This document shows, piece by piece, positions 5,312-27,900 of a stretch of 64,000 bases of DNA (position 1 is the stretch's first letter; each line of letters starts with the position of its first letter). The notes beneath the pieces were generated by a model that saw nothing but the letters and a program-made list of their open reading frames with translations, did no database searches and was not told the origin of the DNA. Made by a program: the position numbers and the translations under genes. The stretch covers positions 83,947 through 147,946 of the forward strand of contig JAUSGQ010000007.1 of the NCBI GenBank assembly GCA_030674455.1. The letters are read 5' to 3'. The stretch is from a bacterium. GTDB lineage: Bacteria; Patescibacteriota; Minisyncoccia; Phycocordibacterales; UBA2100.

Positions 5312-5905
5312 TTAAAGCCCGAAGATTTTCTTGAAAGAATTCTCGTGGGTAATGCGCTCTGCAACCGCAATTTCAATATTATTTGTAATGTTGAAATAAT
5401 CAGCGATGACCTCAAGTTCTTCTTCGCACGGATAGGGACATATAAATACTGACTTTTGATACCTTTCAAACCCAAGCCGCTTTAACGTGGCCGCGAATGC
5501 GTCGCGCGCTGATTTCATCTGATTTGGTATATCGAAGAACACGAGATGCCACCTGCTATCCCAGACAGCCAGTTTGGCCGGCCTGAGATCATATATCGCA
5601 TTACGTGCAACGACCTTGGCACCAGCCTTTGTAAGCTCAATCTCAGCCCGTTCATTCCCATATCTACGGATTCTTATATATTTCTTGTCAATAATATATT
5701 TTGAAATATATCTAAGCTGGCGCTCCGAAGCCTGCTGAAGTTTCTCGAAATCACGAAGTGCGCGGTAGGCACTCAATGAGTTTCGGGCAGGGTGTCGCGA
5801 AATTGCTATTGCTGCATTGCCAATGGTACTCAATACCTTATAGAGAAGTTGACTCTTGCGACTTGACGAGATTTTCATAGAAAGCCTGTCAAGAAAGTAT
5901 AACAT
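5312..5905 (-). CDS. PaaX-family-like transcriptional regulator (N-terminal wHTH plus PaaX_C-like domain)
   Basis: The C-terminal motif WDSRWHLVFFDIPNQMKSARDAFAATLKRLGFERYQKSVFICPYP matches the PaaX C-domain (Cas2/VapD-like fold) signature W.G.W.lv.fDiPe...R..lr..L..lGfg.lq.SVwv.P. The N-terminus is HTH-like. Confidence 0.55.
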   Translation of the reverse strand: MLYFLDRLSMKISSSRKSQLLYKVLSTIGNAAIAISRHPARNSLSAYRALRDFEKLQQASERQLRYISKYIIDKKYIRIRRYGNERAEIELTKAGAKVVARNAIYDLRPAKLAVWDSRWHLVFFDIPNQMKSARDAFAATLKRLGFERYQKSVFICPYPCEEELEVIADYFNITNNIEIAVAERITHENSFKKIFGL

Positions 5906-8205: not shown

Positions 8206-9681
8206 CTAATTCTTGCCAATCAAAGTTTCCGCTCCTCCGCTTATCGTTGTAACGGAACCGGAAAAGAACGGTTTGATGCTATCCGTATCTGTCGTGCCAT
8301 CTTCGGTAAGAAACACTGAATTTCCGGAGACATCTGTGTTGCCTCCCGGCAATGTATAAATTCCATAGCCATAGTTTTGTCCAACGAGATATATGTATGT
8401 AGCATCGTCTATATCAAACTGAATTGTGCGATTCGAGCCGGTAATACCGATGTCGCCCTGAATATACGCGTCTACGGAATTTCCTTTCCGAATGAGAACT
8501 CCCTCGGGAAACGATGCAGTGTAATCCCTGCCATCCGCCTCCGTTTGATATGACTGTTCGTCAACGACTACTTTGACATTCGATATGTCAGAGTTGCTCG
8601 CAGTGCCGCTCTGCCGCCACGTCAGGGAATATAGCCTCAAATCTTCCGTAGAACCCGCGGTAATGCGAATACCGGAAAATCTAACGGCCGTGTCGTTGAC
8701 ATAGCGAGTCATCGCGTTGTTCGGGTCATATTGCGAAAGAACCGCCGAAGCAGTGCCGATTTGAAGCGAAGAGTTTATGCTTTGAGAAGCGCCGCGTATG
8801 GGCAATTGCCCCTCAACGGGAACCGACGCGTCAATCGTCCTCACTTGAAGAATGGCCACTTCTCCAGAATGTTCCGAAAGGTCCCACGCCATATTTCCGT
8901 CGACAGAGAGCGCCAGAGGTTCCCCGACGCGAACTTCGAGCGGTTTTTTGAATTTAAACACTGCCGTGTGGTCAGAACGGATATACGCGTAACTTAATTC
9001 GTTATCATCTCCATCGACAAGAGACAAGTAATCAAACACCTTGTCACTCGACGGTCCTGTTCTTTGAACAGTTATGCTGTTCACTGTTAAATCCGCGCCC
9101 CTGGCGCTAATCTCGAAACTGGTGAATGGTACGTAGTACGCCTGCTGAGGCGCGATTGTGGAAACCGGCTGTTCTGCGGAGGAGACCACAAGAGCGGCAG
9201 ATTCTGTACTTACAGACGAAGAAGACAAGGCCTGCGCAGAGATTGCCGAAGCAACTTGCGTCATCGGCAGGTTAGTCTGACTAACCGCAGGTGCAACACA
9301 AAGCGCATTCAGCTTCGCGCGAGTTCTAATGCCTACAATGCCGGTACCTTTAAACAAACCTGCCGGAGTCAAGATTTCTGAGGCGAATTTCTCCTGAAAT
9401 TTGATTACCGACGTTTTCGTACGCGGACCGAAGACATTTGATTCATTGCCGGGAGAACCCGCGCTAGTTTCTGCAATCCGAGTTTCCGGGCTGGAATTCA
9501 AAAATCTTTGCAATGCCAGAACATCAACGCCAGTAGAACCAACTTTCAAATTTCTCTCCCAAGCGAAAGGGCATGCCGAAGAAGTATCGGCAAAAGCTGT
9601 TGAGGCAAAAAGAAGGAGAAAGACCGGCAAAATGAGCAACCAACGACCGCGACCGACCCGAGCAAGGGCATTAACATACAT
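8206..9681 (-). CDS. secreted protein with peptidoglycan-binding (PG_binding_1) domain
   Basis: A signal/TM segment (WLLILPVFLLLFASTAFA) and a PG_binding_1-like segment (GSTGVDVLALQRFLN...FGPRTKTSVIKFQEKF) are present. The start is set at an internal ATG (MYVNALARV) because the annotated 5-prime 68 codons overlap the next gene region. Confidence 0.6.
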   Translation of the reverse strand: MYVNALARVGRGRWLLILPVFLLLFASTAFADTSSACPFAWERNLKVGSTGVDVLALQRFLNSSPETRIAETSAGSPGNESNVFGPRTKTSVIKFQEKFASEILTPAGLFKGTGIVGIRTRAKLNALCVAPAVSQTNLPMTQVASAISAQALSSSSVSTESAALVVSSAEQPVSTIAPQQAYYVPFTSFEISARGADLTVNSITVQRTGPSSDKVFDYLSLVDGDDNELSYAYIRSDHTAVFKFKKPLEVRVGEPLALSVDGNMAWDLSEHSGEVAILQVRTIDASVPVEGQLPIRGASQSINSSLQIGTASAVLSQYDPNNAMTRYVNDTAVRFSGIRITAGSTEDLRLYSLTWRQSGTASNSDISNVKVVVDEQSYQTEADGRDYTASFPEGVLIRKGNSVDAYIQGDIGITGSNRTIQFDIDDATYIYLVGQNYGYGIYTLPGGNTDVSGNSVFLTEDGTTDTDSIKPFFSGSVTTISGGAETLIGKN

Positions 9682-9780
9682 ACGATTAGTATAATATGCA
9701 TCAAGCATGGCAAGGGTATGTAACGTGATTTCTGTGCATATCCTGTGGTATATTGACTGTGCACAATAGTGCCGTAATTT

Positions 9781-11106
9781 ATGAGATTTAAGGAGGCCAA
9801 AGGAGCCATAAAGAGATCTAGGTCTATAGAGGATATTAGGCAGGCACGCGAAACAATCAAGGGTCTTGACGATGAACATTATCATCTTCCTTTTGAATTC
9901 CCGGTTGCGAGCGAGTTATTAGACGCCTATCTTGCGCGAAAATCATTGCCGTATAATAAACAGCCAAATGCAAGGATTTATCTTTCTGCGGACGGAAAGG
10001 TTAATTACGACGCGTACACGCTTGGAGAAGTACATGACCCAACTTACGTTTTCGGCATTGCCGATGAGAGCAGGCACGCAGAAGTCAATGGGTTACAGAC
10101 ACCTCAATTTAGCGACGTCGTGGCAAGTGCCCCGATTGAGCAACCATCAATTACAAACATAATTCATGTCAAGAATACCGGATTAGTGGTTTTTAAGGCA
10201 TTTCTTAAAAAGTCGCTTAGCACAATGGCAAGAAGCAAGATTCCCCGGGCCAATGCCTTGTATGACGAGAAAAGGGCCGTCAGCGAGAGTGCACAGCTTG
10301 CACTGTTGGGAGATATTTTTAAGAATAGCGCCGATGTTTATGTTCCGCGAGTACTCGGCCACAGTCGTTCCGTAATCGCGATGGAGTATATCCAGGGAGA
10401 GGACATCTCAGAATTGACTTTCAAAAGATTCCTAAATAAACACGATTTTCTTGCAATTGCTGATGTACTTGCAACGATACACATTGAATTTGCTAGAAAT
10501 GCCGAGAAAATCAAGGGTAAATTCAATATTCCTGAAAGTCACACCGCGAATAGCGTCGTAAGTTTCGAAAAGAGAACGAGTCAGTTTCATCACGAGCATC
10601 GGGATAACGGCTTGAAACAAGAGTTATTTGATAGATTTACATCGTTAATTGAACGCGGGCGTCAAGTCATTGCTGATAATCACGAGGCATACCATGATTA
10701 TCGGGATTTGATTTACGGTGACTTTAAGGATGAAAATCTGATTAAAATGCCAGATGGCAGAATAGCACTGATTGACCCGACTATTTGTGCTGGCAGAAAT
10801 AGTATGGACATAGCAAAATTTGCGCGAAGTATTCTTTTCAAGGACCCAACGACTTACACTAAACACTTCCATGATTTCTTGAGAAGGTATCAGGAGCAGA
10901 CCGATACTGTCGTTAATGAGAGAGAGGTCGCAAATATGCTGGGTATTGACATGCTCAACATCATGCGAAGCTATTTTCTGATACCCGAAAAGCAGGTACT
11001 GGTATTTCCACCTACGGTTCGTAATGTCCGACAACATGCAAAATATTACCTTGATTTTATTGACAATGTGTTTGCAAGCAATCTACAGCTCGAGCTTGCG
11101 CATTAA
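9781..11106 (+). CDS. protein-kinase-like fold phosphotransferase (APH/RIO/Kdo-kinase-like)
   Basis: A hinge-like VIAMEYIQGEDI, the catalytic loop LIYGDFKDENLI (HGDxxxxN-like, with D and N conserved) and the metal-binding RIALIDPT (DFG-equivalent) are present. The first ~180 aa have no recognisable family. The gene is AT-rich relative to its neighbours. Confidence 0.5.
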   Translation: MRFKEAKGAIKRSRSIEDIRQARETIKGLDDEHYHLPFEFPVASELLDAYLARKSLPYNKQPNARIYLSADGKVNYDAYTLGEVHDPTYVFGIADESRHAEVNGLQTPQFSDVVASAPIEQPSITNIIHVKNTGLVVFKAFLKKSLSTMARSKIPRANALYDEKRAVSESAQLALLGDIFKNSADVYVPRVLGHSRSVIAMEYIQGEDISELTFKRFLNKHDFLAIADVLATIHIEFARNAEKIKGKFNIPESHTANSVVSFEKRTSQFHHEHRDNGLKQELFDRFTSLIERGRQVIADNHEAYHDYRDLIYGDFKDENLIKMPDGRIALIDPTICAGRNSMDIAKFARSILFKDPTTYTKHFHDFLRRYQEQTDTVVNEREVANMLGIDMLNIMRSYFLIPEKQVLVFPPTVRNVRQHAKYYLDFIDNVFASNLQLELAH

Positions 11107-11114
11107 TCATACAT

Positions 11115-12545
11115 ATGAAATTGGGGACGTATAAGCTTTCCAATAAAGACTTCTTGCGAAGCTATGGCCCTGAGGATATAGAGAATCTCGATACGTCAAG
11201 CAGATACGATTGTGATGTGCTAGTTTGGAATAACAGATATGATTTTTGCTCGGAAATGCTAGTGAGTTTCCCACGTCTAAAATTATTCATAAATTGGGGA
11301 ACTGATGACGCTAACTTGCCTGATTTAGACATGTTGGCGAAGAGGGTTATGGTCAAGAAAGTTGATTTTTACGCACAACAAAGCCTGTGTGAATATGTTC
11401 TTATGTTGATGGTTGCGTTTGAGCACGCTCAAGAGAAAATCTTTCATGATGATGCAGACAATTTCACTATGCAGATTTATGGCAAAAAGATAGGAATTAT
11501 CGGCTTAGGCAAGATCGGTTTTAACGTGGCAAGCTTTCTTCACAAATCCTTCAATTGCATTATCTATTACAACACTACTAAAGATTACCGTATCCCAGAT
11601 TACCAATACGCGTCTAAGGATGACTTGATAAGAGTCTGCGATTACGTAATTATTGTGGCGAAGTCAAGAACGTGTTCTGTTGACCCAAAAGTCATGGAAC
11701 ACGCAAACCCAGATCTTGTTATTCTTAACATCTCGCGGGACAGCATATTGCCCTTCAAGATAATATGTCCATATCTGCAGAGTGGAAAAATTAGAGGGTT
11801 CATAGGCGATGTTACAAAACTAAACCCAGGCGATGGAGTTGCCAAGAATATCCTTATCTCTCCTCGAATTGGCTATCAAACAAAAGAGGCCGTAGAGTTA
11901 AAGCAAAACATCTTATTGTTCTATTTGAAACAATATATGTTTTGTGAGGCCAATAAGAAATCGTATGTTCATATTGCCCGGCATGGTAAGACAGAATGGA
12001 ACTCTTTAAGAATCTACCAAGGCACATATGATTCGCCGCTAACGCACAATGGCAAAGAGGATGCTGAGAAAATTGCTGAATCTCTTGCAGATAAAAAAAT
12101 CGTTCACGTCTTTACAAGTCCTCTCGGTAGGGCTAAAAGAACCGCGGAAATAATTGTCGATAAACTTAATGTACCAATATCAACAATCCCTTCTTTTATT
12201 GAGATGAATTTTGGCATCTTTCAACAAAAACCTCAAGAGCAAATCAAGGAATTGTTTGATGATTTCTTCACAAATCGAAATAATAATGCGCACTACAAGT
12301 TGTTTGTGCCATATCCATCTGGTGAAAGTTATTTTGACGTATATCAACGAATTCTATTTGACATTATGAGGATATTGGTTACGTATGATAATTTTGCAAT
12401 CGTCGGGCACGAAAGTGTTAACAGGATGATAAGGGGAATAATAACCGGCAAGAATCTAACAGAAATGGTTAACGCTAGACAAAAGAATAATGAACTCATT
12501 GCAATAGAATTATCGGAAAATATTGAAAGTGTGATTGTCGTTTGA
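11115..12545 (+). CDS. fusion protein: D-isomer 2-hydroxyacid dehydrogenase-like NAD-binding domain (catalytic Glu/His apparently substituted) plus histidine phosphatase (phosphoglycerate-mutase-like) domain
   Basis: The N-terminal half has a Rossmann GKKIGIIGLGKIGFNVA and an ILNISRDSIL...GKIRGFIGDV core, but the expected EP/PH catalytic residues read NP/PR. The C-terminal half has the RHG motif (HIARHGKTEWN), SPLGRAKRTAEII and a second His (VGHESVNRMIRG) typical of His_Phos_1. Confidence 0.6.
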   Translation: MKLGTYKLSNKDFLRSYGPEDIENLDTSSRYDCDVLVWNNRYDFCSEMLVSFPRLKLFINWGTDDANLPDLDMLAKRVMVKKVDFYAQQSLCEYVLMLMVAFEHAQEKIFHDDADNFTMQIYGKKIGIIGLGKIGFNVASFLHKSFNCIIYYNTTKDYRIPDYQYASKDDLIRVCDYVIIVAKSRTCSVDPKVMEHANPDLVILNISRDSILPFKIICPYLQSGKIRGFIGDVTKLNPGDGVAKNILISPRIGYQTKEAVELKQNILLFYLKQYMFCEANKKSYVHIARHGKTEWNSLRIYQGTYDSPLTHNGKEDAEKIAESLADKKIVHVFTSPLGRAKRTAEIIVDKLNVPISTIPSFIEMNFGIFQQKPQEQIKELFDDFFTNRNNNAHYKLFVPYPSGESYFDVYQRILFDIMRILVTYDNFAIVGHESVNRMIRGIITGKNLTEMVNARQKNNELIAIELSENIESVIVV

Positions 12546-12576
12546 ACATCTGTTGCTATACCAATGTGCGCGATAA

Positions 12577-13191
12577 ATGATTTCGTCCATGGCATCAATA
12601 ATAACTGAACGAGGAAGAGCAATTCACGGCTGGTTTTTACGCCACAAGGAGCGGATTGGGATTATCGCTATAGGACATACGGCAAAACAGATTGAGGAGT
12701 TTTTCTTAGACTGGCTTTTATACGGATTTGTCGTGTTCAAGAGCGCCGAAATTTGGGGTCCTTATTACGGCGCCTTGGTTGCTTTCGCTGTGATGTCGCC
12801 ATTCTCGGCTTTGCTTTGCTATCTCTACATTCGTTTTTACGACTGGGCAAAAAAAGATTGGCTCGGCTTGGAAACTATCGAGGAGTTTAGGCAATCCGAA
12901 GCAACAGCTGGCCCAATAATGCGATGGGTAATTAAGTTCACTAAACTTGGCGACTTTCCGATGTTCGTTGTGTTATCAATATATGGAGACCCGTTTGTAG
13001 TTACTTTGTATTTCCGGCGCGGAGCGCACTTGTACAACGGCCTTTCAAAACGGGACTGGTCTATTTTTTGGGCAAGCGTAGTGTTCTCCAACGCGTACTG
13101 GACGCTCCAGTGGGGAATTATTGTCGCGCTTTTGCATCCGCTTTGGCAGTATGTATTGCAACCGATTCTCCATTTTGTGGGATTTTTCTAA
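12577..13191 (+). CDS. hypothetical membrane protein (204 aa, ~4 TM)
   Basis: The ORF is hydrophobic. It is co-oriented with, and 31 nt after, the previous gene. No recognisable family. Confidence 0.4.
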   Translation: MISSMASIITERGRAIHGWFLRHKERIGIIAIGHTAKQIEEFFLDWLLYGFVVFKSAEIWGPYYGALVAFAVMSPFSALLCYLYIRFYDWAKKDWLGLETIEEFRQSEATAGPIMRWVIKFTKLGDFPMFVVLSIYGDPFVVTLYFRRGAHLYNGLSKRDWSIFWASVVFSNAYWTLQWGIIVALLHPLWQYVLQPILHFVGFF

Positions 13192-13245
13192 TTCGCGTAA
13201 GTAAGGTTGACAACGTGGTGGAAAACGTCGTATCTCAACTGACGA

Positions 13246-13291
13246 GAAGATTGACTTAAAATATCCGGTCGGATATTTTAAGTCAATCTTC
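13246..13291. promoter_or_regulatory. perfect 22-2-22 palindrome (operator-like) containing an embedded promoter TTGACT-17-TATTTT
   Basis: GAAGATTGACTTAAAATATCCG-GT-CGGATATTTTAAGTCAATCTTC is seen directly. TTGACT lies at 13251-13256, the spacer is 17 nt, and TATTTT lies at 13274-13279, ~45 nt upstream of the MazF-like start. Confidence 0.55.
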
Positions 13292-13325
13292 TAAATTCCA
13301 CTTGAGTTCCCATGCTGGTGCTACA

Positions 13326-13727
13326 ATGGCGCGAATGGGGAAGGAGTTTGACAACTGGAACGAGCGGAAGAAAAAGCTACATAACAGTGAGCGACAGTTA
13401 TTATTTCACGAGCGCGAAATCTGGTGGTGTTCGCTCGGCATCAATATCGGGTTTGAACAAGACGGGACGAATGAACTCTTCGAGCGGCCGGTGTTAATCG
13501 TGAAGAAATTCAATCGGGATGTACTGTGGGCGTTGCCACTCACGCGCTCCGATAAGAAAAACCGATATTATATTCCTATCAGTGTTGGCGGCGCGAATTC
13601 TGCTGTCATACTCTCTCAATTGCGGCTCATCAGTAGCAAGCGTCTCCAAAGGCATATGCACAAGTTGCCACAGGGGCAGTTCAAAGAGATATTGCGTCTC
13701 GTGCAACAGTTTTTCCCGAGCAGGTAA
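13326..13727 (+). CDS. MazF/PemK-family toxin-like endoribonuclease (solitary, no adjacent antitoxin ORF)
   Basis: It aligns motif for motif with MazF/EndoA: [30 protein letters not shown] versus [33 protein letters not shown] versus [26 protein letters not shown] versus ERDSVILLEQIRTIDKQRL. The annotated ORF begins with TTG at 13302. The first ATG is at 13326. Confidence 0.65.
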   Translation: [133 protein letters not shown]

Positions 13728-13761: not shown

Positions 13762-13815
13762 GGCCTAGTGGCCATTTGTGCTTGCATAATAACAAACCGA
13801 GGAATCCAGTCAAGG

Positions 13816-13845
13816 TTGACAACTGGGTAGAAAACGTCGTATTAT
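13816..13845 (+). promoter_or_regulatory. sigma70-like promoter TTGACA-18-TATTAT upstream of the secreted-protein gene cluster
   Basis: Seen directly. It lies within the second copy of the ~31-bp direct repeat AAGGTTGACAAC..GAAAACGTCGTAT. Confidence 0.5.
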
Positions 13846-13941: not shown

Positions 13942-14928
13942 ATGATTTCCCTCAAAGGATTTACCCGTGGCTTCATCGCCACGGTTCTGCTCGCGCTGGC
14001 CGGAGTGAGCGTTGCACAAGCCGGAATCTTTCGGGCACTTTTCAGCGGCTCCCAGGATTCCTTTACCCTGTCGGCCGTACTGCCTGCGTACTGCGGTGGC
14101 AAACGTGTGTATGTCGTCGGTATCACCCGGTCAGGGGAAGCCGCTACGTACGTTGCGTTCACTTCGGTGAACGCACCGGTCGTGTTCGATTTGAACGCGG
14201 CCATTCAGGGACTTGCGGAAATCCCTGAATACACGGCAGCTCGCGCGAGCGACGGGAGTATACCCATCCTCGCGTCTTTCAACGTCACCCCCTACCCCGG
14301 AGGGGAAATCTGGGTCGGCTGCGGAACGTCCACGGTAGACGTTCTCGCAAACTCGAGGTACGGCCGGATTTTGGTTGTGAGCATCTCCTGGTGGCCATCG
14401 CAAAGGTCACCAAACGTTGGGGACACTAGCCAGGGCCCGCAACAAATTCCCAACGATGCGGTGTATGTTGGCGACTGGGGTTGGCAAAGGGCAGTCATAA
14501 ACGGCCTCGTGCCATTCCTAGCCTCAGGAGTGGAACTGACCGGTTATACCACCCGTGCAATTCGATTCGCCTTCTACATTTCCGCCAGCAACACCTCGTG
14601 TATGAAAATGATATATGAGGATGACGGAAGCGCGGTTGGTTTCCCCAATACCAGTGGTGGGGAATGCTTCACCAACAGAATTTCCTGGGCAACAGGTACT
14701 GACGATGGTTATATTGCCTTTTCTCCGGATTTCCAGGGTGGTGTGTGCGCTCATTACACCTGGAACGAGAGCCGATTGACACTCGTCGGACAGAGAATTG
14801 TATGTCCACCTGACTTTCTCCAGATGCACTCTCCAGATACCCTGCCGGCCAGCAGGGTATGTTTTTTATTCACACAAATTGTTGCGCACAATTTGCGTTG
14901 CAAAAGAGATGATATACTTTTTATGTAA
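13942..14928 (+). CDS. hypothetical secreted protein (signal peptide, Cys-containing), GC-rich
   Basis: The N-terminal signal peptide is MISLKGFTRGFIATVLLALAGVSVAQA. An SD AGGAG lies 8 nt upstream. There is a marked GC increase versus the preceding island. No family recognised. Confidence 0.5.
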   Translation: MISLKGFTRGFIATVLLALAGVSVAQAGIFRALFSGSQDSFTLSAVLPAYCGGKRVYVVGITRSGEAATYVAFTSVNAPVVFDLNAAIQGLAEIPEYTAARASDGSIPILASFNVTPYPGGEIWVGCGTSTVDVLANSRYGRILVVSISWWPSQRSPNVGDTSQGPQQIPNDAVYVGDWGWQRAVINGLVPFLASGVELTGYTTRAIRFAFYISASNTSCMKMIYEDDGSAVGFPNTSGGECFTNRISWATGTDDGYIAFSPDFQGGVCAHYTWNESRLTLVGQRIVCPPDFLQMHSPDTLPASRVCFLFTQIVAHNLRCKRDDILFM

Positions 14929-15392
14929 TGAAACTTTCCAAATCTCTGGCCATAGTGTCCGTGGTTGTTCTTGTAAGTCCGGTCGGATTTGTCCATGCCA
15001 AGGTTTACTGCCCGGGTGAGACGGCAATTCTAAATTACAGCATCTCTAATGTAGTAACAGGCGGAAGCTGTGATAGCCAAATTACCCCTCCATTCCTTTC
15101 TCCTTATCCATCACTTCCTAGTGGAGGAATAACAGTCAGTCAGGGAACTGCGCAGGGTTCGGTTTCGTACACTGTTTCGGAAGGCGGAACGTTTTCATTC
15201 AGTTGCACGAACCCGGGCGCAAGCCCAACAACTGGCAGTACTGTACTTGAAGTCAATGCAAACCAAGAGAGATGTTGCGGTAATTGGGACCTATCGAGTA
15301 AATCATCGTGGAATGGAACCACTTGCGTGGACCCTTTTTCTGTCGTGCCGCAAGCTCCGGCTTGGATTGGCGGTTCTTGCAGGAGAATTTGA
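14928..15392 (+). CDS. hypothetical secreted Cys-rich protein
   Basis: It has the signal peptide MKLSKSLAIVSVVVLVSPVGFVHA and multiple Cys residues. The start overlaps the previous stop (ATGA-type coupling). Confidence 0.5.
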   Translation: MKLSKSLAIVSVVVLVSPVGFVHAKVYCPGETAILNYSISNVVTGGSCDSQITPPFLSPYPSLPSGGITVSQGTAQGSVSYTVSEGGTFSFSCTNPGASPTTGSTVLEVNANQERCCGNWDLSSKSSWNGTTCVDPFSVVPQAPAWIGGSCRRI

Positions 15393-15484
15393 ACGGCTGT
15401 TTTCAATAAATAACAGGAAAAACATACGCACAGTAAGCGCCGATAACGCAGTGCTGGCTCTGTAGTTTGCGGTATAATGGCCAT

Positions 15485-15817
15485 ATGCGATTGCGCGCTT
15501 TCTTGATTTTCTTGATTGTAGTCGGGGCCGTGGTTTCTTCGGGACTAGCATGGAAGCGGTTTTATGTTGATAGGAATTACTACATCTACGCGCAAGTGCC
15601 GTGCGACCCTCTTGTAAATTCCTGCTTTATCGGTGAGGGAACGGGCGCGTCTCAGTATTACAAAAAAATACAAAAACTTGCTTACTTGGTTCCGGCCTGC
15701 AATGGATGGAACGAGGCGTGTCCGCCATTGAAATGCGAGCCGAATGAACCGCAATGCAAAGAGACTTATTGCACTCCAGAGGAAGACACGCCTTGTACAT
15801 CTGGCATATTCCAATAA
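15485..15817 (+). CDS. small membrane-anchored Cys-rich protein
   Basis: It has an N-terminal TM/signal anchor (MRLRAFLIFLIVVGAVVSSGLA) and a Cys-rich C-terminus. The ATG lies 6 nt downstream of a TATAAT box (15473-15478). Confidence 0.4.
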   Translation: MRLRAFLIFLIVVGAVVSSGLAWKRFYVDRNYYIYAQVPCDPLVNSCFIGEGTGASQYYKKIQKLAYLVPACNGWNEACPPLKCEPNEPQCKETYCTPEEDTPCTSGIFQ

Positions 15818-15827
15818 TAAAGATTAT

Positions 15828-16613
15828 ATGTCGCCTCACAGAGTTGATGAAGCCGGAAAGATATATACGCCGCTTCAAATTGCCTTAAGCGAGATAGAGG
15901 AGCGCAGGCGAAATCCGGTTCTTGCGGAGAAAATAAAGAAGTTCTTCGGGGATTTTCCTCCTCCGAAAGAATTCGGCGATATGCCGCGCGTGGTTCTGGT
16001 TCGTTACATTATGAGTCCCACATTTGAATACTCTTATTTCCTTGACATGTGTAAAGGACTTCGTTTCAAGCCCTTATTTCTGGAGTTCGCGAGCGATAAA
16101 TTTGTCGCTAAAAATCCGTCGAAATATTCCTTATGTAATATGTCTTTTTTCACCCAAAATATTTCTGGAGAGAAGAAAGTGAAATCCAGAATGAAGCTCG
16201 TTAATTTCAATAAGGATGAGGGGAAGCTACTTTGTGATATTGTCGCGAAAAATGGTGAGAAATTGGTTGACTTGCACCATCGAATATTAAAAGAGTCTGG
16301 AGGCCATGTTCCAGGAAGTCTTGTTGATTTCTCGGAATGGTTCCGCAAAAGCACGACACTATCCAAGGAATATTATTATCTTTATTACTTGGCATTGTTC
16401 CTTGTCAACGGAATTTTGTTCGAGAATTTCCTTCTGAATAAAACGGAGTCTGCTTTTACAAAAGGTAAAGTTATACCGGCCTTTGACAAACTCGTTGAAA
16501 TGTTCGGGGTTCGGCCGCTCATTGTTCACTTGGCACCGCGCGAGACCGACGAGGACCCGTTTTGGGAATATTATGATAAGCGCATCAAGCCAATGGTAGA
16601 GAAAAGCAAATAA
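15828..16613 (+). CDS. hypothetical protein (262 aa)
   Basis: It is an intact ORF, AT-richer than its neighbours, ending 2 nt before the histidine kinase gene. No recognisable domains. Confidence 0.4.
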   Translation: MSPHRVDEAGKIYTPLQIALSEIEERRRNPVLAEKIKKFFGDFPPPKEFGDMPRVVLVRYIMSPTFEYSYFLDMCKGLRFKPLFLEFASDKFVAKNPSKYSLCNMSFFTQNISGEKKVKSRMKLVNFNKDEGKLLCDIVAKNGEKLVDLHHRILKESGGHVPGSLVDFSEWFRKSTTLSKEYYYLYYLALFLVNGILFENFLLNKTESAFTKGKVIPAFDKLVEMFGVRPLIVHLAPRETDEDPFWEYYDKRIKPMVEKSK

Positions 16614-16615
16614 AT

Positions 16616-18265
16616 ATGGATTACAATCTTCTAGAGAACCTTCAATTTTGCGGACAAATAGTAGCGGACAGCTCCGCGCTGTTGTATTACACCCACATAC
16701 CGTCCGCTGTTATAGCCATTTTTATTGGAGCGTACGTACTTTATAAAACAAGGGCATTGTCTGGGGTTCTTCTGTTTGGAATATCTCTTGTTTTTTCTTT
16801 GTGGGTTACGTTGAATCTCTTTATATGGCTGGAATTTGACAACAACGCAGTGATGATAACGCTGTGGTCGGTACTTGGGCTTCTATCGGTCTTGCTATGT
16901 TTTCTTACACACTGGTTTACGCACGAGTTTATGGCTGAAAAGCCGCTTCCGCTTTGGGTACTTGCCATGTGGGCAATTCTTATAGCTCCAGTGGCAATTT
17001 TTACACCGACATCTTTTAATCTTTCCGGAGTTGATATACAACAATGTGTTTCTGTAGAAGGACACAATTTCCTGAATTATTATTATCTGGTGGGAGTGTT
17101 GACAATGATTTTTGCGTCCATCTCGGCATTTTACGCAAGAAATATCTCACCAAGTAAAAAAATTGCACCGGCAAAGTGGTTAATCTTTGCAGGCGTTCAA
17201 TTATTTTTATTGTCTTTTCTTACAACAGGTTTCGTGGCGAGTTATCTAGTTGACTCGGGGCTTATTCCGGATTTCGGACTGGAACAATATGGCGTAGCGA
17301 CCATGGCTGTGTTCATGGGCTTTCTCGCGTATGCCACTGTTCGTTATCACGCATTCAATCTTAAGCTTCTCGCTGCGCAGGCGCTTGTTTTGTCTCTTGT
17401 GGCGCTTATCGCATCGGAGTTTCTGTTTGTCACCAGCGCAATAAATCAAATTCTTGTTGGACTAACCTTGGGACTTGCCGTAATTTTCGGTTTCTTTTTG
17501 GTGCGTAGCGTAAAAGCAGAGGTGCTACAGCGCGAGCTTATCCAAAAACAGGAGGAGGAATTGGAAGCGGTTAACAAACAGCAAGAGGGGCTTCTGCACT
17601 TCATCAGCCATGAAATTAAGGGGTACTTGTCCAAGAACGAGGCGGGTTTTGCCGCGATTGCCGAGGGCGATTACGGAACCGTCTCTGTATCTCTGAAAGA
17701 AATGGCCGCTTCCGCGCTCCAAGATACGCGCCGCGGCGTTGAAACTGTCATGGATATTTTGGACGCTTCCAATCTGAAGAAGGGAACTGTTGCCTATGAT
17801 AAAAAGAGTTTCGATTTTCCTAAAGCAATTCAAGAAGTTGTTAATTCCCTAAAACCGATGGCGCAGGAAAAAGGGATTTCATTGGAATATACCGACAGCA
17901 CCGGCGGTTCGGCGAAGATTAACGGGGACGAAAACAAGCTATGCCATCATGTAATCCGAAATTTGATAGATAATTCTATTCGCTACACGCCTTCAGGAAG
18001 CGTGAAAGTAAGCGTGGACAAAGGCGGTTCCGTACTTCGAATGACAGTAGCGGACACTGGTGTCGGTATCTCGCCGGAAGACATGAAGAAACTCTTTACC
18101 GAAGGCGGACGCGGTGCCGACTCGATAAAAGTAAATGTACATTCAACCGGCTACGGATTGTTCATCGCAAAAACGATAGTCGAAGCGCACGGCGGCAAAA
18201 TCAGGGCGGAGTCGGAAGGAAAGGGCAAGGGTTCGAGATTTATTGTTGAGTTGCCTGCGGTTTAG
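16616..18265 (+). CDS. membrane sensor histidine kinase (multi-TM N-terminus, HisKA plus HATPase_c)
   Basis: It has ~8 predicted TM helices, the H-box LHFISHEIKGYL, the N-box NLIDNSIRYT, G1 VADTGVGIS and G2 GYGLFIAKTIVEAHGG. No response regulator gene is adjacent. Confidence 0.8.
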   Translation: MDYNLLENLQFCGQIVADSSALLYYTHIPSAVIAIFIGAYVLYKTRALSGVLLFGISLVFSLWVTLNLFIWLEFDNNAVMITLWSVLGLLSVLLCFLTHWFTHEFMAEKPLPLWVLAMWAILIAPVAIFTPTSFNLSGVDIQQCVSVEGHNFLNYYYLVGVLTMIFASISAFYARNISPSKKIAPAKWLIFAGVQLFLLSFLTTGFVASYLVDSGLIPDFGLEQYGVATMAVFMGFLAYATVRYHAFNLKLLAAQALVLSLVALIASEFLFVTSAINQILVGLTLGLAVIFGFFLVRSVKAEVLQRELIQKQEEELEAVNKQQEGLLHFISHEIKGYLSKNEAGFAAIAEGDYGTVSVSLKEMAASALQDTRRGVETVMDILDASNLKKGTVAYDKKSFDFPKAIQEVVNSLKPMAQEKGISLEYTDSTGGSAKINGDENKLCHHVIRNLIDNSIRYTPSGSVKVSVDKGGSVLRMTVADTGVGISPEDMKKLFTEGGRGADSIKVNVHSTGYGLFIAKTIVEAHGGKIRAESEGKGKGSRFIVELPAV

Positions 18266-18432: not shown

Positions 18433-19219
18433 GGATAATGGGGTCAGCCACCATTTATGATATCATGCGCGCATGCCAAGGATGCAATAATGGATAATGG
18501 GGTCAGCCACCATTTATGATATAATAACCGCATGCCAAGAATAGAACGAACTGACATTGGTGATTATGTGTATCACGTAATCAATAGAGCAAACGCTCGA
18601 GTACAGATATTTGACAGCGACAAAGATTACGAGCTTTTTGAGAATATCCTTGAGGAAGCGGTGGAGAAATTCGACATGAGACTCTTGGCTTATTGCATCA
18701 TGCCAAATCACTGGCACTTAGTTCTGTATCCAAGAAATGACGGAGACCTTTCTCTCTTTATGGGCTGGCTTACTAACACGCACACAAGAAGATGGCATAC
18801 CGGAAAGGGAACCATAGGACAAGGCCATCTTTATCAGGGCAGATACAAGTCATTCTTATGCCAAGATGATAGTCATTTTCTTTCCCTCGTGCGCTACGTG
18901 GAACGTAACGCGAAAAGAGCAAATCTAGTTAAAAAAGCGGAAAACTGGAAATGGTCTAGCGCATGGCGAAAAGAATATGGAACAACTAAACAAAAGAAGA
19001 TTCTCTCACCATGGCCGGTTCCTGCACCGAGAAACTATCTGCAATGGCTAAATCAAGCACAAACAGAAGATGAAGAAGAGGCAATAAGGAGGTCTGTTAC
19101 AAAGGGTAACCCATATGGTGGGAGTGGCTGGACAGATAACGTAGTAAAAAGATTCGGCCTTGAGCAAACACTAAGGAAAGTAGGCAGGCCGAACACAAAC
19201 AATGGTGGCTGACCCCATT
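18433..19219 (+). mobile_element. IS200/IS605-family (tnpA-only) element or REPtron-like unit with a tandem-duplicated left end
   Basis: The 31-bp GGATAATGGGGTCAGCCACCATTTATGATAT occurs twice in tandem (18433-18463 and 18493-18523) before the transposase gene. Its inverse complement (AATGGTGGCTGACCCCATT) lies at 19201-19219, overlapping the gene stop. Confidence 0.5.
18532..19212 (+). CDS. IS200-like / REP-associated Y1 (HUH) tyrosine transposase
   Basis: It has the HUH motif CIMPNHWHLVLYP and a conserved Tyr region (RYVERNAKRANLV). It is 226 aa long and flanked by inverted copies of a hairpin-forming repeat. Confidence 0.75.
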   Translation: MPRIERTDIGDYVYHVINRANARVQIFDSDKDYELFENILEEAVEKFDMRLLAYCIMPNHWHLVLYPRNDGDLSLFMGWLTNTHTRRWHTGKGTIGQGHLYQGRYKSFLCQDDSHFLSLVRYVERNAKRANLVKKAENWKWSSAWRKEYGTTKQKKILSPWPVPAPRNYLQWLNQAQTEDEEEAIRRSVTKGNPYGGSGWTDNVVKRFGLEQTLRKVGRPNTNNGG

Positions 19220-19503: not shown

Positions 19504-19788
19504 ATGAAAATCAACGCAAAAACCAACATGAAACGATGGACGGTGGTATTTCGTACTTTGTCCAATATAAATCGGCTGAAAATCATAGCTATGCTTTCCG
19601 ACGGCCGTAAGATGAATGTCGGTGATATCGCAGAAGACTTGAGGATTTCCTTCAAGGGTACATCGAATCATCTGGCTATGCTCAAAAATCTAGATGTTTT
19701 AGAAGCACAAGGTGCTTCCGGGCACGTGTTCTATTTTATAAATCCCAACATGCCTAAAGATTTCAAGATGGTAGTGGGTGTAATGTAA
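19504..19788 (+). CDS. ArsR/SmtB-family HTH transcriptional regulator
   Basis: LSNINRLKIIAMLSDGRKMNVGDIAEDLRISFKGTSNHLAMLKNLDVLEA matches the ArsR wHTH signature. Size is 94 aa. Confidence 0.6.
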   Translation: MKINAKTNMKRWTVVFRTLSNINRLKIIAMLSDGRKMNVGDIAEDLRISFKGTSNHLAMLKNLDVLEAQGASGHVFYFINPNMPKDFKMVVGVM

Positions 19789-20019: not shown

Positions 20020-20955
20020 ATGCAACGGCTTCTAACCGGTGTTCAGCCATCCGGCACAACCCACCTTGGCAACTATTTTGGCGCGCTCCGGCCTTTCGTT
20101 TCCATGTATAAGGAATACGAGAGCATGCTGATGCTCGCCGATTACCACGCACTCACCACGCTCAAAGACCACGCCGAACTGCGCGAAAATGTAATGAATG
20201 CCGTCAGAGATTACATTGCTATCGGAGTGGACCCGAAACAAGCAACAATTTTCCAGCAATCCTCCGTTCCCGCTCACACGGAACTAGCATGGATTCTTGA
20301 GTGCCAAGTTACAGTTCCATTTCTGATGCAAGCGCACGCTTATAAAGACAAAGTTGCCAAAGGACTCGAGGCGAACGCCGGCCTGTTTTGCTATCCGATG
20401 CTCATGGCAGCCGATATTCTTATGTACGATACTGATGTGGTTCCGGTTGGTATTGACCAGAAACAGCACGTGGAATACGCGCGAGAGGCTGCCGCGAAAT
20501 TTAATACCGCGTACGGCGAGACTTTTAAGGAGCCGAAGGAAATGGTTTTGCGCGACTCGGCGACAGTTCCCGGCACTGACGGCAAGAAAATGAGCAAGAG
20601 TTATGGAAACACAATACCGCTTTTTGGCACAAAAGATGAAATTCACAAAGCGGTGATGGCGATCGTTACAGACTCAAAAGGTGAGAGCCCGGAGAATGTG
20701 TACGCGATACACCGCCTTGTAAAAGACGAGTCAGAAATCGCAACTCTATATAAATCTAATAAAGGAAAATACAAAGTTGTTAAAGACGCGCTTGCGGACG
20801 ATATTGATGCAATGGTCGCGCCAATGCGTGAAAAGCGCGAGTCTATAAGCGATGCCGATGTCATAAAAATACTCAAAGACGGTGCAGAAAGGGCGCGCGA
20901 GCAGGCCGAAGCGAAAATGGAAATTGTCCGGCAGAAAGTCGGAGTAACAATATGA
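20020..20955 (+). CDS. trpS: tryptophan--tRNA ligase
   Basis: It is a class I enzyme with an N-terminal TGVQPSGTTHLGNY (HIGH-like) and KMSKS (KMSKSYGNTIPLF). The ~311 aa size is typical of TrpRS. Confidence 0.9.
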   Translation: MQRLLTGVQPSGTTHLGNYFGALRPFVSMYKEYESMLMLADYHALTTLKDHAELRENVMNAVRDYIAIGVDPKQATIFQQSSVPAHTELAWILECQVTVPFLMQAHAYKDKVAKGLEANAGLFCYPMLMAADILMYDTDVVPVGIDQKQHVEYAREAAAKFNTAYGETFKEPKEMVLRDSATVPGTDGKKMSKSYGNTIPLFGTKDEIHKAVMAIVTDSKGESPENVYAIHRLVKDESEIATLYKSNKGKYKVVKDALADDIDAMVAPMREKRESISDADVIKILKDGAERAREQAEAKMEIVRQKVGVTI

Positions 20956-24969: not shown

Positions 24970-27900
24970 ATGTATGCCACTATTCGATTATTACCATGCC
25001 TAAAAGCGAGCCTCCTTTTCATGCTTAGAAAATTCACCTTCGGAGGCATTGGCTTAGCTCTTCTCATAACTCCTTTATTTGCTAGTGCTGATACGACAAG
25101 CGATGCGACTGAATTATCGCGCTGGGAGGCGGTAGTAACTTGTCTAAAAATCAAAGTTGACAACCATGATTACGTTAATGCACTTTCTTGTTTAGGAGCT
25201 GGAACAGCCGCGAACACATTATTTTCTCCGTCTGTGAGTTCTCTCAAAGCTGGCGCGCTTGCCGCCGTAGCAACGACATTCACACAGTCGTCCGGCTCAA
25301 ACAGCGCCGAGCCGGCAACAGATGCGGAAAAGGAGGCGGAGATGCTTACCGATCTCCTTAGCTCCAAAATTGCGCCGGAACCGGTAACGAGGTCAAAAGT
25401 CGGCGCGTTCGCTTCAGAATCTGAGAAAGTAAAACAGCAGGTACAAGTCGCGAAGCATCGCGGACAGCTTATGAAACAGTTGGCTGAAGATAACCCCGAG
25501 GCCTTTCTTCGCAATGTTATGCCGGAGTCTCAGCGCTCCAAATTCTCAACCGAGGTTAAGAACGAAATTGAGCAAAAAGTGGCACTAACGGGGAAAGTGG
25601 AGGTCGTACACCTTGATGATTTCACAAACCATGAAAACTCAAAGTTTAATTATTTTCTTCAATCGGGAGGTTCCAGAATCTCGCTTAAGGTCGCAGGGAA
25701 CACGCCAGCAATGTTATCCGGCTCTTCAGTGCGCGCGAATGGATATAAACTCGGTCAAACTCTTGTTGTGGCTGCAAATTCAAATTCAGATGGGGATTCA
25801 GGCGGAGGAGGAGGTTTGACGGTACTTTCGCGGCCAGCTCTTGAATCTGCCAGAACGCAAAGAACTCTGGTAATTCTTGTAACTAGTCCTGGGCAGGCAA
25901 GTACGCCGACAAAAGAAGAAATGAGAAACCTTATATTCTCCGGAAATATTAATAGATATTACGAGGAGCAATCATACGGAAACGTACGATTTGAAGGAGA
26001 CGTGACTGATTGGATATCAGTGCCTGCTTCTTCATATCCTGTGTATGGGCCTATCGAACTCGACCAGTCGGATATAAGTAGCTATATTTCACGAAATCAC
26101 ATAGACTTGTCGCTCTATGATCGAGTCATGACCGTTGTAAACGGCTGGGCCGGTGGTTATGCATGGGCCGGCAAGGTGGACAGGTTAATCAACGGTGTAA
26201 CCTATCGCCTTTCCATAGGTTCGACGGGCTGGTCGGTTTCAGGATGGGCAGTAGAGAACATGTCCGGCTTTGAAAATGTATTCTCGCACGAAATGGGGCA
26301 CGAGCTTGGAGTCATGCATGCTAATTCACGGGAATGTAGCGGTCCATCTCTGGATAGAGATTGTCGTCACAATGAATATGGCAATGCCTTCGACATTATG
26401 GGATATGGAAATAATGCGGAGCATTTCAATGCATATTACAAAGATTCTCTAGGATGGCTTGATAATTCCTCGAAGGTTTCCATTACTCAAAGCGGAAGAT
26501 ATTCACTCTCGCCAATCGAGGCGCGGACAGGCGTGCGAGCTGGCATTATCACCAACCCTGCTACTCCTTCCGCGCTACCCTTGTATCTCGAATTTAGGCA
26601 ACCGATGGGATATGACAGTATATTGCCGCCCAACTCGGCAGGCCTGCAGTTAAATCAAGTTGTTACAAGAGGTCCATATGATTGGCTTCCATTTCCATGG
26701 CTCATTAACGCGAATTACGCGACCGATCCTCCATGTAATCCAGGTTTCCCATGTTTTTCACAGCCGTCGCTTATGCAGGGTAGCAATTTCTCATGGGCTG
26801 GTCGTGGCATCAGCATAGGTTCACTCGTTACAACACCAACATTGGCAACTTTTGATGTCGGGCTTACACAGCCATTGTGCGAACGAAACGGTTTATATGA
26901 TAGTAATAACAATCCATACTGGCAACAGCGTGTGGCTGCCGGCTCAAGCGCAACACTGCAAATTAATTTGACGAACGGCAACACTATCGCATGCGGTCCG
27001 AGTACAGTAGAATTTTCGACCTCTGTGACGAATTCGAGCGGATGGTCTATCTCGCAATATCCGAACGAGAGTAACGAAAGAGTTGTTATTGCGCCCGGCG
27101 AGACTGAGCGTGTGTATGTATCCCTTTCTCTGCCAGAAGATGCAGCACCGGGCAATAGAACTGTACGTATCACGGTGTCTGATTTGACCAACGGTCGTTC
27201 ATACAATATTGAGAGGACAATTACGGTCACGGCGAGACCAACGATAACCGAAATCTTTCCTTCAAGCGGAAGAGCGGCGACTGCCGTGACATTAAAAGGT
27301 ACGGGGTTCAATGAGTACCCAGGAAACACTATAAATATCAATGGAGGAAATCTCTCTGCCACTATTAGAAATGTTATTGCTAGAGCCGGAACTCTAACCT
27401 TCACCTTTCCTACAACCTTTGAGAGTTACGGCGGAGGAAGCGAGCCGCGACCTTCACAAGTTCCACCGCCATTGGGTCAGTACTCAATTGCTGTTTCTCG
27501 AAATGATGACGGCGGAACCGCAAGCGCAACGTTCACAGTAACGTCGGGTAATTCAGCTTTTCCCACCATCACATCAATTAATCCTTCGAGTACAACAGGA
27601 AGACCAACAAACTTTACGATTATTGGGACAAACTTCCAGTCTGGGTCAATGATTTACTACACCTATGCTGGCACTGGCAGTATTCCTTCTGGCACTTTTA
27701 CGCCGACGTTCAACCCCTCTAGACCTGATAGATTGACGTTCACTACGGCATCATTGCCTAAAGGAATCTACACTTTTTATGTTAAGAATCCTGACGGTCA
27801 AATTTCAGACACCGAGAATGTGACGGTTTTCTGTTACGACTTCAGAAGTATTCCATTGCAGGAGGGAAGTCAGGGAGCTGATGTTATTGCTCTCAAGCAG

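Follow-up and report, generated by a model that had tools for sequence, protein, structure and literature searches.

Is the AT-rich stretch at positions 9,781-13,191 of a Patescibacteriota contig a recently imported island, and what might its genes do? The stretch lies in a 64,000-nt segment of contig JAUSGQ010000007.1 (hereafter the window, to which all coordinates refer unless a relative's locus is named). It contains three co-oriented genes on the plus strand: a kinase gene (9781-11106, 441 aa), a gene encoding a 2-hydroxyacid dehydrogenase (2HADH)-like domain fused to a histidine phosphatase (11115-12545, 476 aa) and a membrane-protein gene (12577-13191, 204 aa). The gaps between them, 8 nt from kinase to fusion and 31 nt from fusion to membrane gene, reproduce exactly the layout described in the original prediction, which had been made from the window alone and had proposed horizontally acquired cargo. 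We found that the kinase and fusion genes form a two-gene module of the Candidate Phyla Radiation (CPR)/Patescibacteria that is old and has been passed on mostly by vertical inheritance; it is not a recently imported island. Our preferred reading, to which we assign a probability of roughly 60%, is that this old module is a coupled kinase and phosphatase serving aromatic, above all tryptophan, metabolism.

We first consider composition. The predicted AT-rich dip at 9.8-13.2 kb was borne out when GC content was computed in 1-kb windows: the minimum of 0.38-0.40 lies at 10.5-13 kb, compared with a mean of 0.485 for the whole window. Other dips occur at 39.7-41.3 kb, which is comparable, and at 15.7-16.6 kb. 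The prediction had treated all three genes as AT-rich, which was correct for two of them. Among 50 window genes, the fusion gene has the lowest GC (0.378, z = -2.6) and the kinase gene is low too (0.427, z = -1.4), but the membrane gene is ordinary (0.455, z = -0.8). By codon position, the fusion gene has a GC of 0.367 at positions 1 and 2 and 0.400 at position 3; as the first two positions are also low, amino-acid composition contributes to the dip. In every lineage measured, the fusion gene was 2-13 GC points under the rest of its locus. The kinase gene was likewise GC-poor relative to its locus, except in L021, where it was above its flanks, and L018, where it equalled the locus mean (L numbers denote loci or lineages of relatives, P numbers family proteins). 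The offset persists where the pair is embedded in trp/shikimate operons. Because it recurs in nearly every lineage, the depletion belongs in large part to the gene family and does not mark a recent arrival.

Gene order in relatives was then compared with that of the window. The order dnaK-dnaJ-tm163-kinase-fusion was found in L001-L004, whose kinase is 78% identical, and in L008, where identity is 51%. In L006 the order is 559-aa open reading frame (ORF, minus strand)-kinase-fusion-membrane-p116-p289-histidine kinase (HK), which is the window order minus MazF, p328 and p154. L017 carries the same gene set with the kinase-fusion block moved (dnaJ-tm163-559-aa ORF (minus strand)-membrane-...-p289-HK-kinase-fusion-trpS-asxS). 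Homologues of the membrane gene (48-52% identity) were confined to two loci: in L006 the gene immediately follows the fusion gene, and in L017 it lies ~3 kb upstream of the kinase gene. It is absent from L001-L004 and L008. The trio therefore did not hold up as a unit in the gene-neighbourhood comparison: what is conserved is the pair, and the membrane gene is a loosely associated neighbour outside the conserved core. Its product has about 3-4 hydrophobic segments by hydropathy, in agreement with the four-transmembrane protein that had been predicted, and no match in Pfam, NCBIfam or PADLOC. The divergent intergenic region at 9709-9780, between the minus-strand 559-aa ORF (probably about 500 aa) and the kinase gene, is likely the promoter region of a kinase-fusion-membrane transcription unit; no strong consensus promoter was found within it.

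These observations bear directly on the possibility that the stretch is horizontally acquired, AT-rich cargo bounded by mobile elements, which we now regard as very unlikely. The composition that suggested it is real, in that the fusion gene is the GC-poorest of the window and the kinase gene is low as well, and MazF-like and IS200-like genes do lie downstream. Lateral spread among CPR on repeated occasions could likewise explain why the pair is GC-poorer than its flanks in almost all lineages. However, relatives with kinases of 51-78% identity carry the pair at the same dnaJ-tm163 locus, the wider gene set is common to L006 and L017, the membrane gene has normal GC, and the depletion at codon positions 1 and 2 points to amino-acid composition. 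We found no tRNA genes and no Rfam matches in the window, no integrase-type domain in the flanking ORFs scanned and no repeats bracketing the kinase-fusion-membrane unit. The MazF gene lies in a 0.6-kb insertion of its own, flanked by 31-nt direct repeats. Thus the MazF-like and IS200-like genes, which had been taken as boundaries, are both present but are separate small insertions beside the module. A defence island was also considered and was rejected, as none of the eight proteins between 8.2 and 16.6 kb matched a PADLOC model.

To characterize the pair, we analyzed the kinase and the two halves of the fusion protein separately. The kinase core spans residues ~120-435, with the beta3 Lys138, the catalytic loop Y312-G-D314-F-K316-D-E-N319 and the Mg-binding D332 (IDP). 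The motifs on which a kinase-like core had been proposed, YGDFKDEN and IDPT, are thus present and invariant in the family: when distant short forms of 311-374 aa are taken into the alignment, G313, D314, K316 and N319 (YGDFKxEN), D332-P333, G338 and D343 are invariant, K346 and F347 are nearly so, and the beta3 Lys and an alphaC Glu are present. An APH-type D-x5-G-x4-D-(I/L)-A segment takes the place of the activation loop, and no activation segment or APE motif was seen after the Mg-binding Asp by reading of the alignment. Pfam matches were weak and sub-threshold (ABC1, RIO1, fructosamine kinase (FN3K) and APH); APH scored 15.2 bits against a gathering threshold of 23.2 but is significant for the relatives P0006, P0072 and P0085. 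The AlphaFold2 (AF2) model is confident for residues 160-430 and not for 1-136, with pLDDT 70-96 in the core and below 50 at the N-terminus. The best Foldseek matches were methylthioribose (MTR) kinase, PsiK, ethanolamine/choline kinases, APHs and macrolide kinases, all of them small-molecule kinases, and no eukaryotic protein kinase (ePK) was found among the top 50 fold matches. The closest PDB sequences were AKT2/PKA, over 40 residues of the catalytic and Mg loops only (E = 8e-5). Taken together, motifs and fold identify the protein as a catalytically complete small-molecule kinase of the APH/MTR-kinase fold, with predicted activity.

The kinase had also been described as having an N-terminal domain of some 180 residues without known relatives. 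An extra region does exist, but it comprises ~100-120 residues, the N-lobe starting near residue 120, and it has no confident model. It is confined to the clade of the window protein; P0007 and the short forms are without it. The kinase family is genuinely rare. A word-indexed search recovered 8 proteins, and a third homologue search of the same kind with a broad kinase alignment added only 3. An exhaustive HMMER scan of 1.84 billion cluster representatives yielded 73 proteins at E <= 1e-3, 15 of them at E <= 1e-30.

The fusion protein matched Pfam 2-Hacid_dh_C (1.7e-16) and His_Phos_1 (1.6e-39), so that the proposed combination of a dehydrogenase-like domain lacking the canonical triad with a histidine phosphatase holds at the level of domain assignment. 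The C-terminal half (residues ~285-476) is a branch 1 histidine phosphatase domain. Its residues R289, H290, R339, E363/E404 and H432 are invariant in all complete family sequences and broken only in truncated ones. Against PDB profiles it aligned with PhoE (2e-29, 1ebb), PSP1 (9e-25 over the whole phosphatase domain, 4ij5), FBPase-2 (1e-24) and CobC (2e-24, 6nru), with all of which it has the motif P-x-GESY-x-D-x3-R in common, and it was closer to true phosphatases than to mutases. We conclude that this half is an intact phosphatase of the PhoE/PSP1/FBPase-2/CobC type whose activity is predicted from these conserved residues. It scored below every NCBIfam equivalog cutoff, and its SixA score was 27.5 against a cutoff of 74.5 bits. 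No cobalamin genes were seen in any neighbourhood of the family. Since phosphatases of the PhoE/PSP1/CobC-type subgroup act on very diverse substrates (PMC12051542), the substrate is not readable from the sequence.

The N-terminal half (residues ~1-280) has the two-lobed 2HADH fold. The AF2 model of the fusion protein has a pLDDT of 91.3 and a pTM of 0.89, and Foldseek matched the N-half to GRHPR (5aov), PHGDH (6plg) and HPPR (3ba1) over ~300 aligned columns, with target-normalised TM-scores of 0.67-0.73 for GRHPR and HPPR (5aov, 3ba1). In the GxGxxG motif, each of the glycines G130, G132 and G135 is conserved in all but one of 43 family sequences. The catalytic triad of 2HADHs is Arg-Glu-His (PMC6303947). 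At the corresponding positions the window protein keeps the Arg (R208), has no Glu and has R251 in place of the His. Across the 43 sequences, the Arg position holds R in about half and otherwise D, N, S, G, E, K, F, W or M; the Glu position is never conserved; and the His position holds H in ~21, as in distant members, K in ~17, as in the close clade, and R in the window protein only. The SERA-invariant Arg-Ser phosphate-binding motif is replaced by the beta3-alpha3 loop V-W38-N39-N40, in which W38 and N40 are invariant. The NAD-specifying Asp is absent, and many family members have an NADP-type [ST]R..K loop. The essentially invariant, family-specific residues are W38 and N40 (beta3-alpha3) and N60, W61 and G62 (beta4-alpha4), in the two loops that hold the substrate in canonical enzymes, together with Y254 and K263. 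The protein scored 36 bits against a cutoff of 454 for the 3-phosphoglycerate dehydrogenase (PGDH) family TIGR01327.

The label of a pseudo-dehydrogenase, under which this half had been described, is therefore right in that the canonical triad is absent, but it needs a caveat: the cleft is strongly conserved with new residues, and type IIIK PGDHs are active with Arg and Lys and no Glu (PMC6303947, PMC6300728). In our reading, the pattern of conservation suggests that the N-half has not decayed and is a conserved ligand- and NADP(H)-binding module, and that classical 2HADH chemistry is probably not the conserved function of the family. The fusion architecture is shared by about 34 proteins with identities as low as 29%, from the CPR lineages Paceibacterota, Peregrinibacteria/Peribacteraceae, Gracilibacteria and Saccharimonadales. 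Some variants (P0035-38 and L044) have lost the Rossmann lobe and kept the N-lobe loops and the phosphatase, and in phosphatase-only variants (L022, L030, L043 and L046) the whole N-domain is missing.

The kinase gene lies directly upstream of the fusion gene in ~12 of 18 lineages, with gaps of -4 to ~17 nt. This tight order was found in the window and in L001-4, L006, L008, L009, L010, L014, L017, L021, L041 and L050. In L007 and L019 the two genes are likewise adjacent, the gaps as called reaching ~70 nt, and in L018/L038 they are convergent. In four of the HMMER matches a kinase domain of this family is joined to His_Phos_1 in a single chain (P0085, P0112 and P0114, ~760 aa; P0105, 497 aa). 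Such single-chain fusions are independent "Rosetta-stone" evidence that the kinase and the histidine phosphatase work together. P0085, P0112 and P0114 (L033 8001-10292) are built as His_Phos_1-kinase followed by a degenerate His_Phos-like domain with "RHL" for "RHG"; the genomic context of P0085 was uninformative. In P0107, a hydrolase-like and a nucleotidyltransferase-like region are joined to the kinase. In one Paceibacterota sub-lineage (L018, 227-862 and 2284-3240; L039, 710-1345), a uridine-kinase-like P-loop kinase gene lies directly upstream of the fusion gene, and a gene for a ComF-like phosphoribosyltransferase (PRTase) separates the fusion gene from the convergent kinase gene.

In other CPR lineages, the pair is robustly associated with trp, aro and aromatic aminoacyl-tRNA synthetase genes. 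In L009, the contig of P0007/P0016, the order is trpB-trpA-kinase-fusion followed by EPSP synthase (EPSPS)/shikimate kinase (SK) and type II dehydroquinase. L050 has trpC/F-trpB-trpA-kinase-fusion and, further along, a DAHP synthase (DAHPS)+DHQ synthase (DHQS) fusion, an EPSPS+type I dehydroquinase+shikimate dehydrogenase fusion, SK and chorismate synthase (CS). In L012, trpEGD-EPSPS/SK-CS-HisPhos350-fusion is followed by convergent trpABCF, DHQS and DAHPS. L010 has EPSPS/SK, DHQS, DAHPS and PfkB before kinase-fusion, and HAD, chorismate mutase, prephenate dehydrogenase, HisC and tryptophanyl-tRNA synthetase (TrpRS) after it. The other arrangements are CS-kinase-fusion (L019), CS-phosphatase convergent with trpABFCD (L022 and L030), DAHPS-fusion-ATP-grasp (L015/16), fusion-ATP-grasp-prephenate dehydrogenase (L045), kinase-fusion-tyrosyl-tRNA synthetase (TyrRS)-...-DAHPS (L041), fusion-trpS (L017 and L048) and kinase (minus strand)-trpS (L018/L038). 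In L019 and L022, CS lies directly upstream of the pair or the phosphatase gene; in L012 it is also upstream, with a single gene in between. In five lineages the gene nearest to the phosphatase gene is trpA or trpB. Where no trp genes are visible in Paceibacterota, a TrpRS gene follows the pair. In the window, trpS (20020-20955, plus strand; TIGR00233, 278 against a cutoff of 176.75 bits) lies 7.5 kb downstream of the pair, beyond the HK cluster and the inserted IS200-like and ArsR genes.

Two direct roles in these pathways were rejected. No AroD or AroE was seen in L010 and L012, which suggested that the pair might replace a missing shikimate enzyme. This was discarded because both are present in canonical form in the L050 cluster, where DHquinase_I and Shikimate_DH are fused to EPSP synthase. 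A kinase feeding an O-phosphoserine-dependent TrpB2 was likewise rejected, since the neighbouring TrpBs are TrpB1 (TIGR00263, 541-562 against a cutoff of 392 bits). The TrpB1 of L021 (960-2447, minus strand), a Saccharimonadales metagenome-assembled genome, appears to have an N-terminal Trp-repressor-like domain (Pfam Trp_repressor, 2e-07; TIGR01321, 40.8 bits against a cutoff of 67), which would be an unusual enzyme-regulator fusion if the ORF start is right. The multi-enzyme shikimate fusions of L050 (10537-15035; 604 aa for DAHP synthase+DHQ synthase and 895 aa for EPSP synthase+type I dehydroquinase+shikimate dehydrogenase) are reminiscent of the eukaryotic AROM arrangement.

How might the pair serve aromatic metabolism? 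The kinase would add a phosphate and the phosphatase would remove it, from the same small phospho-metabolite or from successive ones, a logic that may resemble that of 6-phosphofructo-2-kinase/fructose-2,6-bisphosphatase (PFK-2/FBPase-2). The N-domain of the fusion would act as a ligand- or NADP(H)-binding specificity or regulatory module and not as a classical dehydrogenase. It may still bind a dinucleotide, probably NADP(H), with the Arg-Glu-His chemistry exchanged for W38, N40, N60, W61 and K263. The leading concrete model, which we put forward as doubtful, is a three-carbon serine node. In this model a phosphoserine (or phosphoserine-like) phosphatase would supply the serine consumed by the beta subunit of tryptophan synthase, and the PGDH/GRHPR-derived domain together with the kinase would feed or gate that node. 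It is favoured by trpA or trpB as nearest neighbour in five lineages, by the full-length PSP1 match and by the PGDH/GRHPR-clade domain. To our knowledge, TrpB is the only tryptophan-pathway step that consumes the product of a phosphatase reaction, namely serine. A small-molecule module, as had been proposed, is supported, and the guess at a serine/glycerate node is still a live candidate.

Several observations weigh against a coupled kinase and phosphatase in aromatic metabolism. No trp or shikimate genes were found in the 64-kb window by tblastn with 17 probes; in the window and its closest relatives the pair is found with dnaJ, the sensor HK and TrpRS, so that the aromatic link is only indirect for this genome. 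The fusion gene occurs without the kinase in L012, L015/16, L020/L045 and L022/L030, in some of them with an ATP-grasp ligase instead. The phosphatase half scored below the NCBIfam cutoffs for both PspA (NF045917, 76 against 350 bits) and CobC (TIGR03162, its best NCBIfam match, 110 against 162.9 bits). A kinase and a phosphatase acting on one substrate form a futile cycle unless they are regulated or other steps lie between them, and the serine model leaves the role of the kinase and the tyrosine and common-branch links unexplained. The conserved cleft with its NADP-type loop could equally mean a new redox activity and not a sensor. The uridine-kinase-like and PRTase neighbours hint at a ribose or nucleotide connection that our preferred model does not explain.

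Other functions were weighed against the same evidence. It is possible, and we hold it tentatively, that the pair is an accessory part of a CPR tryptophan/aromatic supraoperon in one of two forms. As a new enzymatic route, the kinase, an NADP(H)-dependent 2HADH using K263, D232, N205, W38 and N40, and the phosphatase would together convert a salvaged three-carbon or ribosyl compound to a pathway co-substrate such as serine for TrpB. As a switch of the PFK-2/FBPase-2 kind, the pair would respond to NADP(H) or aromatic ligands by adjusting how much of a regulatory phospho-metabolite is present. The strong form of the earlier serine/glycerate proposal, in which a glycerate kinase, an active type IIIK-like (phospho)glycerate dehydrogenase and a phosphoserine/3-phosphoglycerate phosphatase lead from glycerate or 3-phosphoglycerate to serine, with gene and domain order following the order of the reactions, seems unlikely. 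GRHPR and PGDH are nearest to the N-domain in both fold and sequence, PSP1 (4ij5, 9e-25) aligns across the phosphatase domain, and the pair is found after trpB-trpA, where TrpB uses serine. The active site of the window clade, with Arg and Lys/Arg and no Glu, also has the composition of type IIIK PGDHs (PMC6303947, PMC6300728). However, the Arg-Ser of SERA has become an invariant Trp-Asn, no NAD-specifying Asp is present, and about half of the family, including P0023 (N), which has the best trp-operon context, has lost the substrate-anchoring Arg. At the acid/base position the window protein carries Arg instead of Lys or His. Variants without a Rossmann lobe persist, phosphoserine aminotransferase was seen in no cluster, and we know of no APH-fold glycerate kinase.

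Protein phospho-signalling, by a Ser/Thr kinase with its antagonist or with a SixA-like phospho-His phosphatase for the HK and a CtBP-like NAD(P)H sensor, is very improbable. YGDFKDEN resembles the HRDLKPEN of ePKs, the closest PDB sequences are AKT2/PKA, and a sensor HK gene immediately precedes the pair in L007 and L017 and lies close to it in the window, L006 and L018. The use of 2HADH folds by CtBP and plant AN without enzymatic activity (PMC6303947) would also fit. Yet the fold neighbours of the kinase are exclusively small-molecule kinases, its activation loop is replaced by the APH-type segment, the adjacency to the HK is limited to one clade with conserved synteny, and the SixA score is far below its cutoff. 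Also very improbable is a role in cofactor or nucleotide homeostasis, with an NAD kinase and NADP(H) 2'-phosphatase or a vitamin or nucleoside couple, the Rossmann domain binding the dinucleotide as substrate. The archaeal MJ0917 fusion is an NAD kinase/NADP(H) 2'-phosphatase, the best NCBIfam match of the phosphatase is the riboside-5'-phosphate phosphatase CobC, and the best fold match of the kinase is MTR kinase, a ribose 1-kinase. Neighbouring genes include the uridine-kinase-like and ComF-like PRTase genes (L018/L039), a PfkB ribokinase-like gene (L010) and Ham1 (L044). Such a role leaves the strong trp/shikimate/aminoacyl-tRNA synthetase association unexplained, Rossmann-less variants keep the same phosphatase, and we know of no NADP phosphatase of the histidine phosphatase family.

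The genes around the pair in the window show further local changes. The MazF/PemK-like gene (13302-13727; Pfam, 9.4e-12) alone is bracketed by a 31-nt direct repeat (13203-13233 and 13812-13842, 90% identical) that holds a TTGACA -35-like box. A perfect palindrome of 23 nt with a 2-nt spacer lies upstream of it at 13245-13292. There is no obvious antitoxin ORF, and MazF is absent from L006 despite the same flanking genes. The arrangement suggests a solo toxin cassette whose insertion duplicated the promoter region of the gene that follows. The next genes, p328 and p154 (13942-15392), are GC-rich ORFs without a family match, p328 having a GC of 0.54 and a signal-peptide-like N-terminus. Together with MazF they fill the interval between the membrane gene and p116, which is empty in L006, and they are probably an accessory insertion encoding secreted proteins. 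The p116-p289-sensor HK block follows at 15467-18265, 2 nt separating the stop of p289 from the start of the HK gene. The HK has ~8 N-terminal transmembrane segments, an H-box and HATPase_c, with no response regulator nearby, and p116 and p289 have no family match. This block accompanies the kinase-fusion pair in the Paceibacterota L006, L007, L017 and L018. An IS200-like Y1 transposase gene (18532-19212, 226 aa, 1e-17) and an ArsR-type helix-turn-helix gene (19504-19788) lie between the HK gene and trpS; L017 is without them at the corresponding position.

On the other side of the pair, the minus-strand 559-aa ORF (8206-9885) overlaps the start of the kinase gene only when read from its first ATG, and it most likely starts at an internal Met (~9708) that appears to be followed by a signal peptide. 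The tblastn similarity of its first ~75 residues to L006 is opposite-strand kinase coding sequence. Its product has a weak PG_binding_1 match, and it is conserved beside the kinase in L006 and L017. Further away are a gene for a PaaX-middle/Cas2-like protein of 197 aa (5312-5905, minus strand), between dnaK and a GNAT gene, and an ORF of 1913 aa at 24970-30711 (plus strand).

For genome annotation, the locus illustrates that a local dip in GC that belongs to a gene family can pass for an island if toxin and transposase genes lie close by. A large share of bacterial diversity belongs to the CPR/Patescibacteria, whose metabolism is strongly reduced and poorly understood. A conserved, CPR-restricted pair at the ends of trp operons and next to TrpRS and TyrRS is a candidate that can be cloned, either for a missing accessory step or for a control point in the synthesis or management of aromatic amino acids in these organisms. 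In terms of enzymology, the fusion adds to the few 2HADH lineages without the Arg-Glu-His triad (type IIIK PGDH, subfamily X4 and plant AN). The kinase and both halves of the fusion belong to known superfamilies; for the fusion architecture, the re-wired 2HADH cleft and the pairing and trp-operon context, no description was found in a limited literature search, which also yielded nothing of direct relevance on shikimate-pathway gaps in CPR.

Compared with known systems, each part of the pair combines shared and distinct features. The best structural neighbours of the kinase are the small-molecule eukaryotic-like kinases (ELKs), namely MTR kinase, PsiK, choline/ethanolamine kinases and APH (E = 1e-7 to 1e-5). 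It shares with APH the brace after the Mg-binding Asp, and its invariant His on the helix that precedes the catalytic loop ("..IH", position 234) can be read as the APH-type LxxLH motif. It differs from the ELKs in its low identity (12-15%, TM-scores ~0.5), in the ePK-type Lys of its catalytic loop (D-x-K-x-x-N) and in the extra N-terminal region of its clade. Like type III PGDHs (IIIK/IIIH) and GRHPR, the N-half of the fusion has the complete two-lobed fold and GxGxxG, and in having H or K at the acid/base position and no Glu the family may resemble the type IIIK enzymes. In contrast to PGDHs and other 2HADHs, it has Trp-Asn for the SERA Arg-Ser, no NAD-specifying Asp, a carboxylate-anchoring Arg that is not conserved and, in the window protein, Arg at the acid/base site, and it carries an attached phosphatase, an architecture that we did not find in the 2HADH knowledgebase. 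The C-terminus has the complete catalytic core and a length similar to PhoE, iPSP1 (PspA) and CobC, and differs from them by the family-specific invariant N436, R440 and Q456 ("HESVNRxIRG" and "RQKN"). As a whole, the pair can be compared with PFK-2/FBPase-2, in which a kinase is likewise coupled to a branch 1 histidine phosphatase and one small phospho-metabolite is acted upon. FBPase-2 aligns with the phosphatase half at 1e-24, the two having H-(Q/E)-(A/S)-V-x-R as well as P-x-GESY-x-D-x3-R in common, and other bacteria fuse this kinase domain to His_Phos_1. Fructose 2,6-bisphosphate is not indicated as a substrate of the pair, which differs from PFK-2/FBPase-2 in having an APH/ELK kinase instead of a P-loop kinase, encoded by a separate gene, and an extra 2HADH-fold domain.

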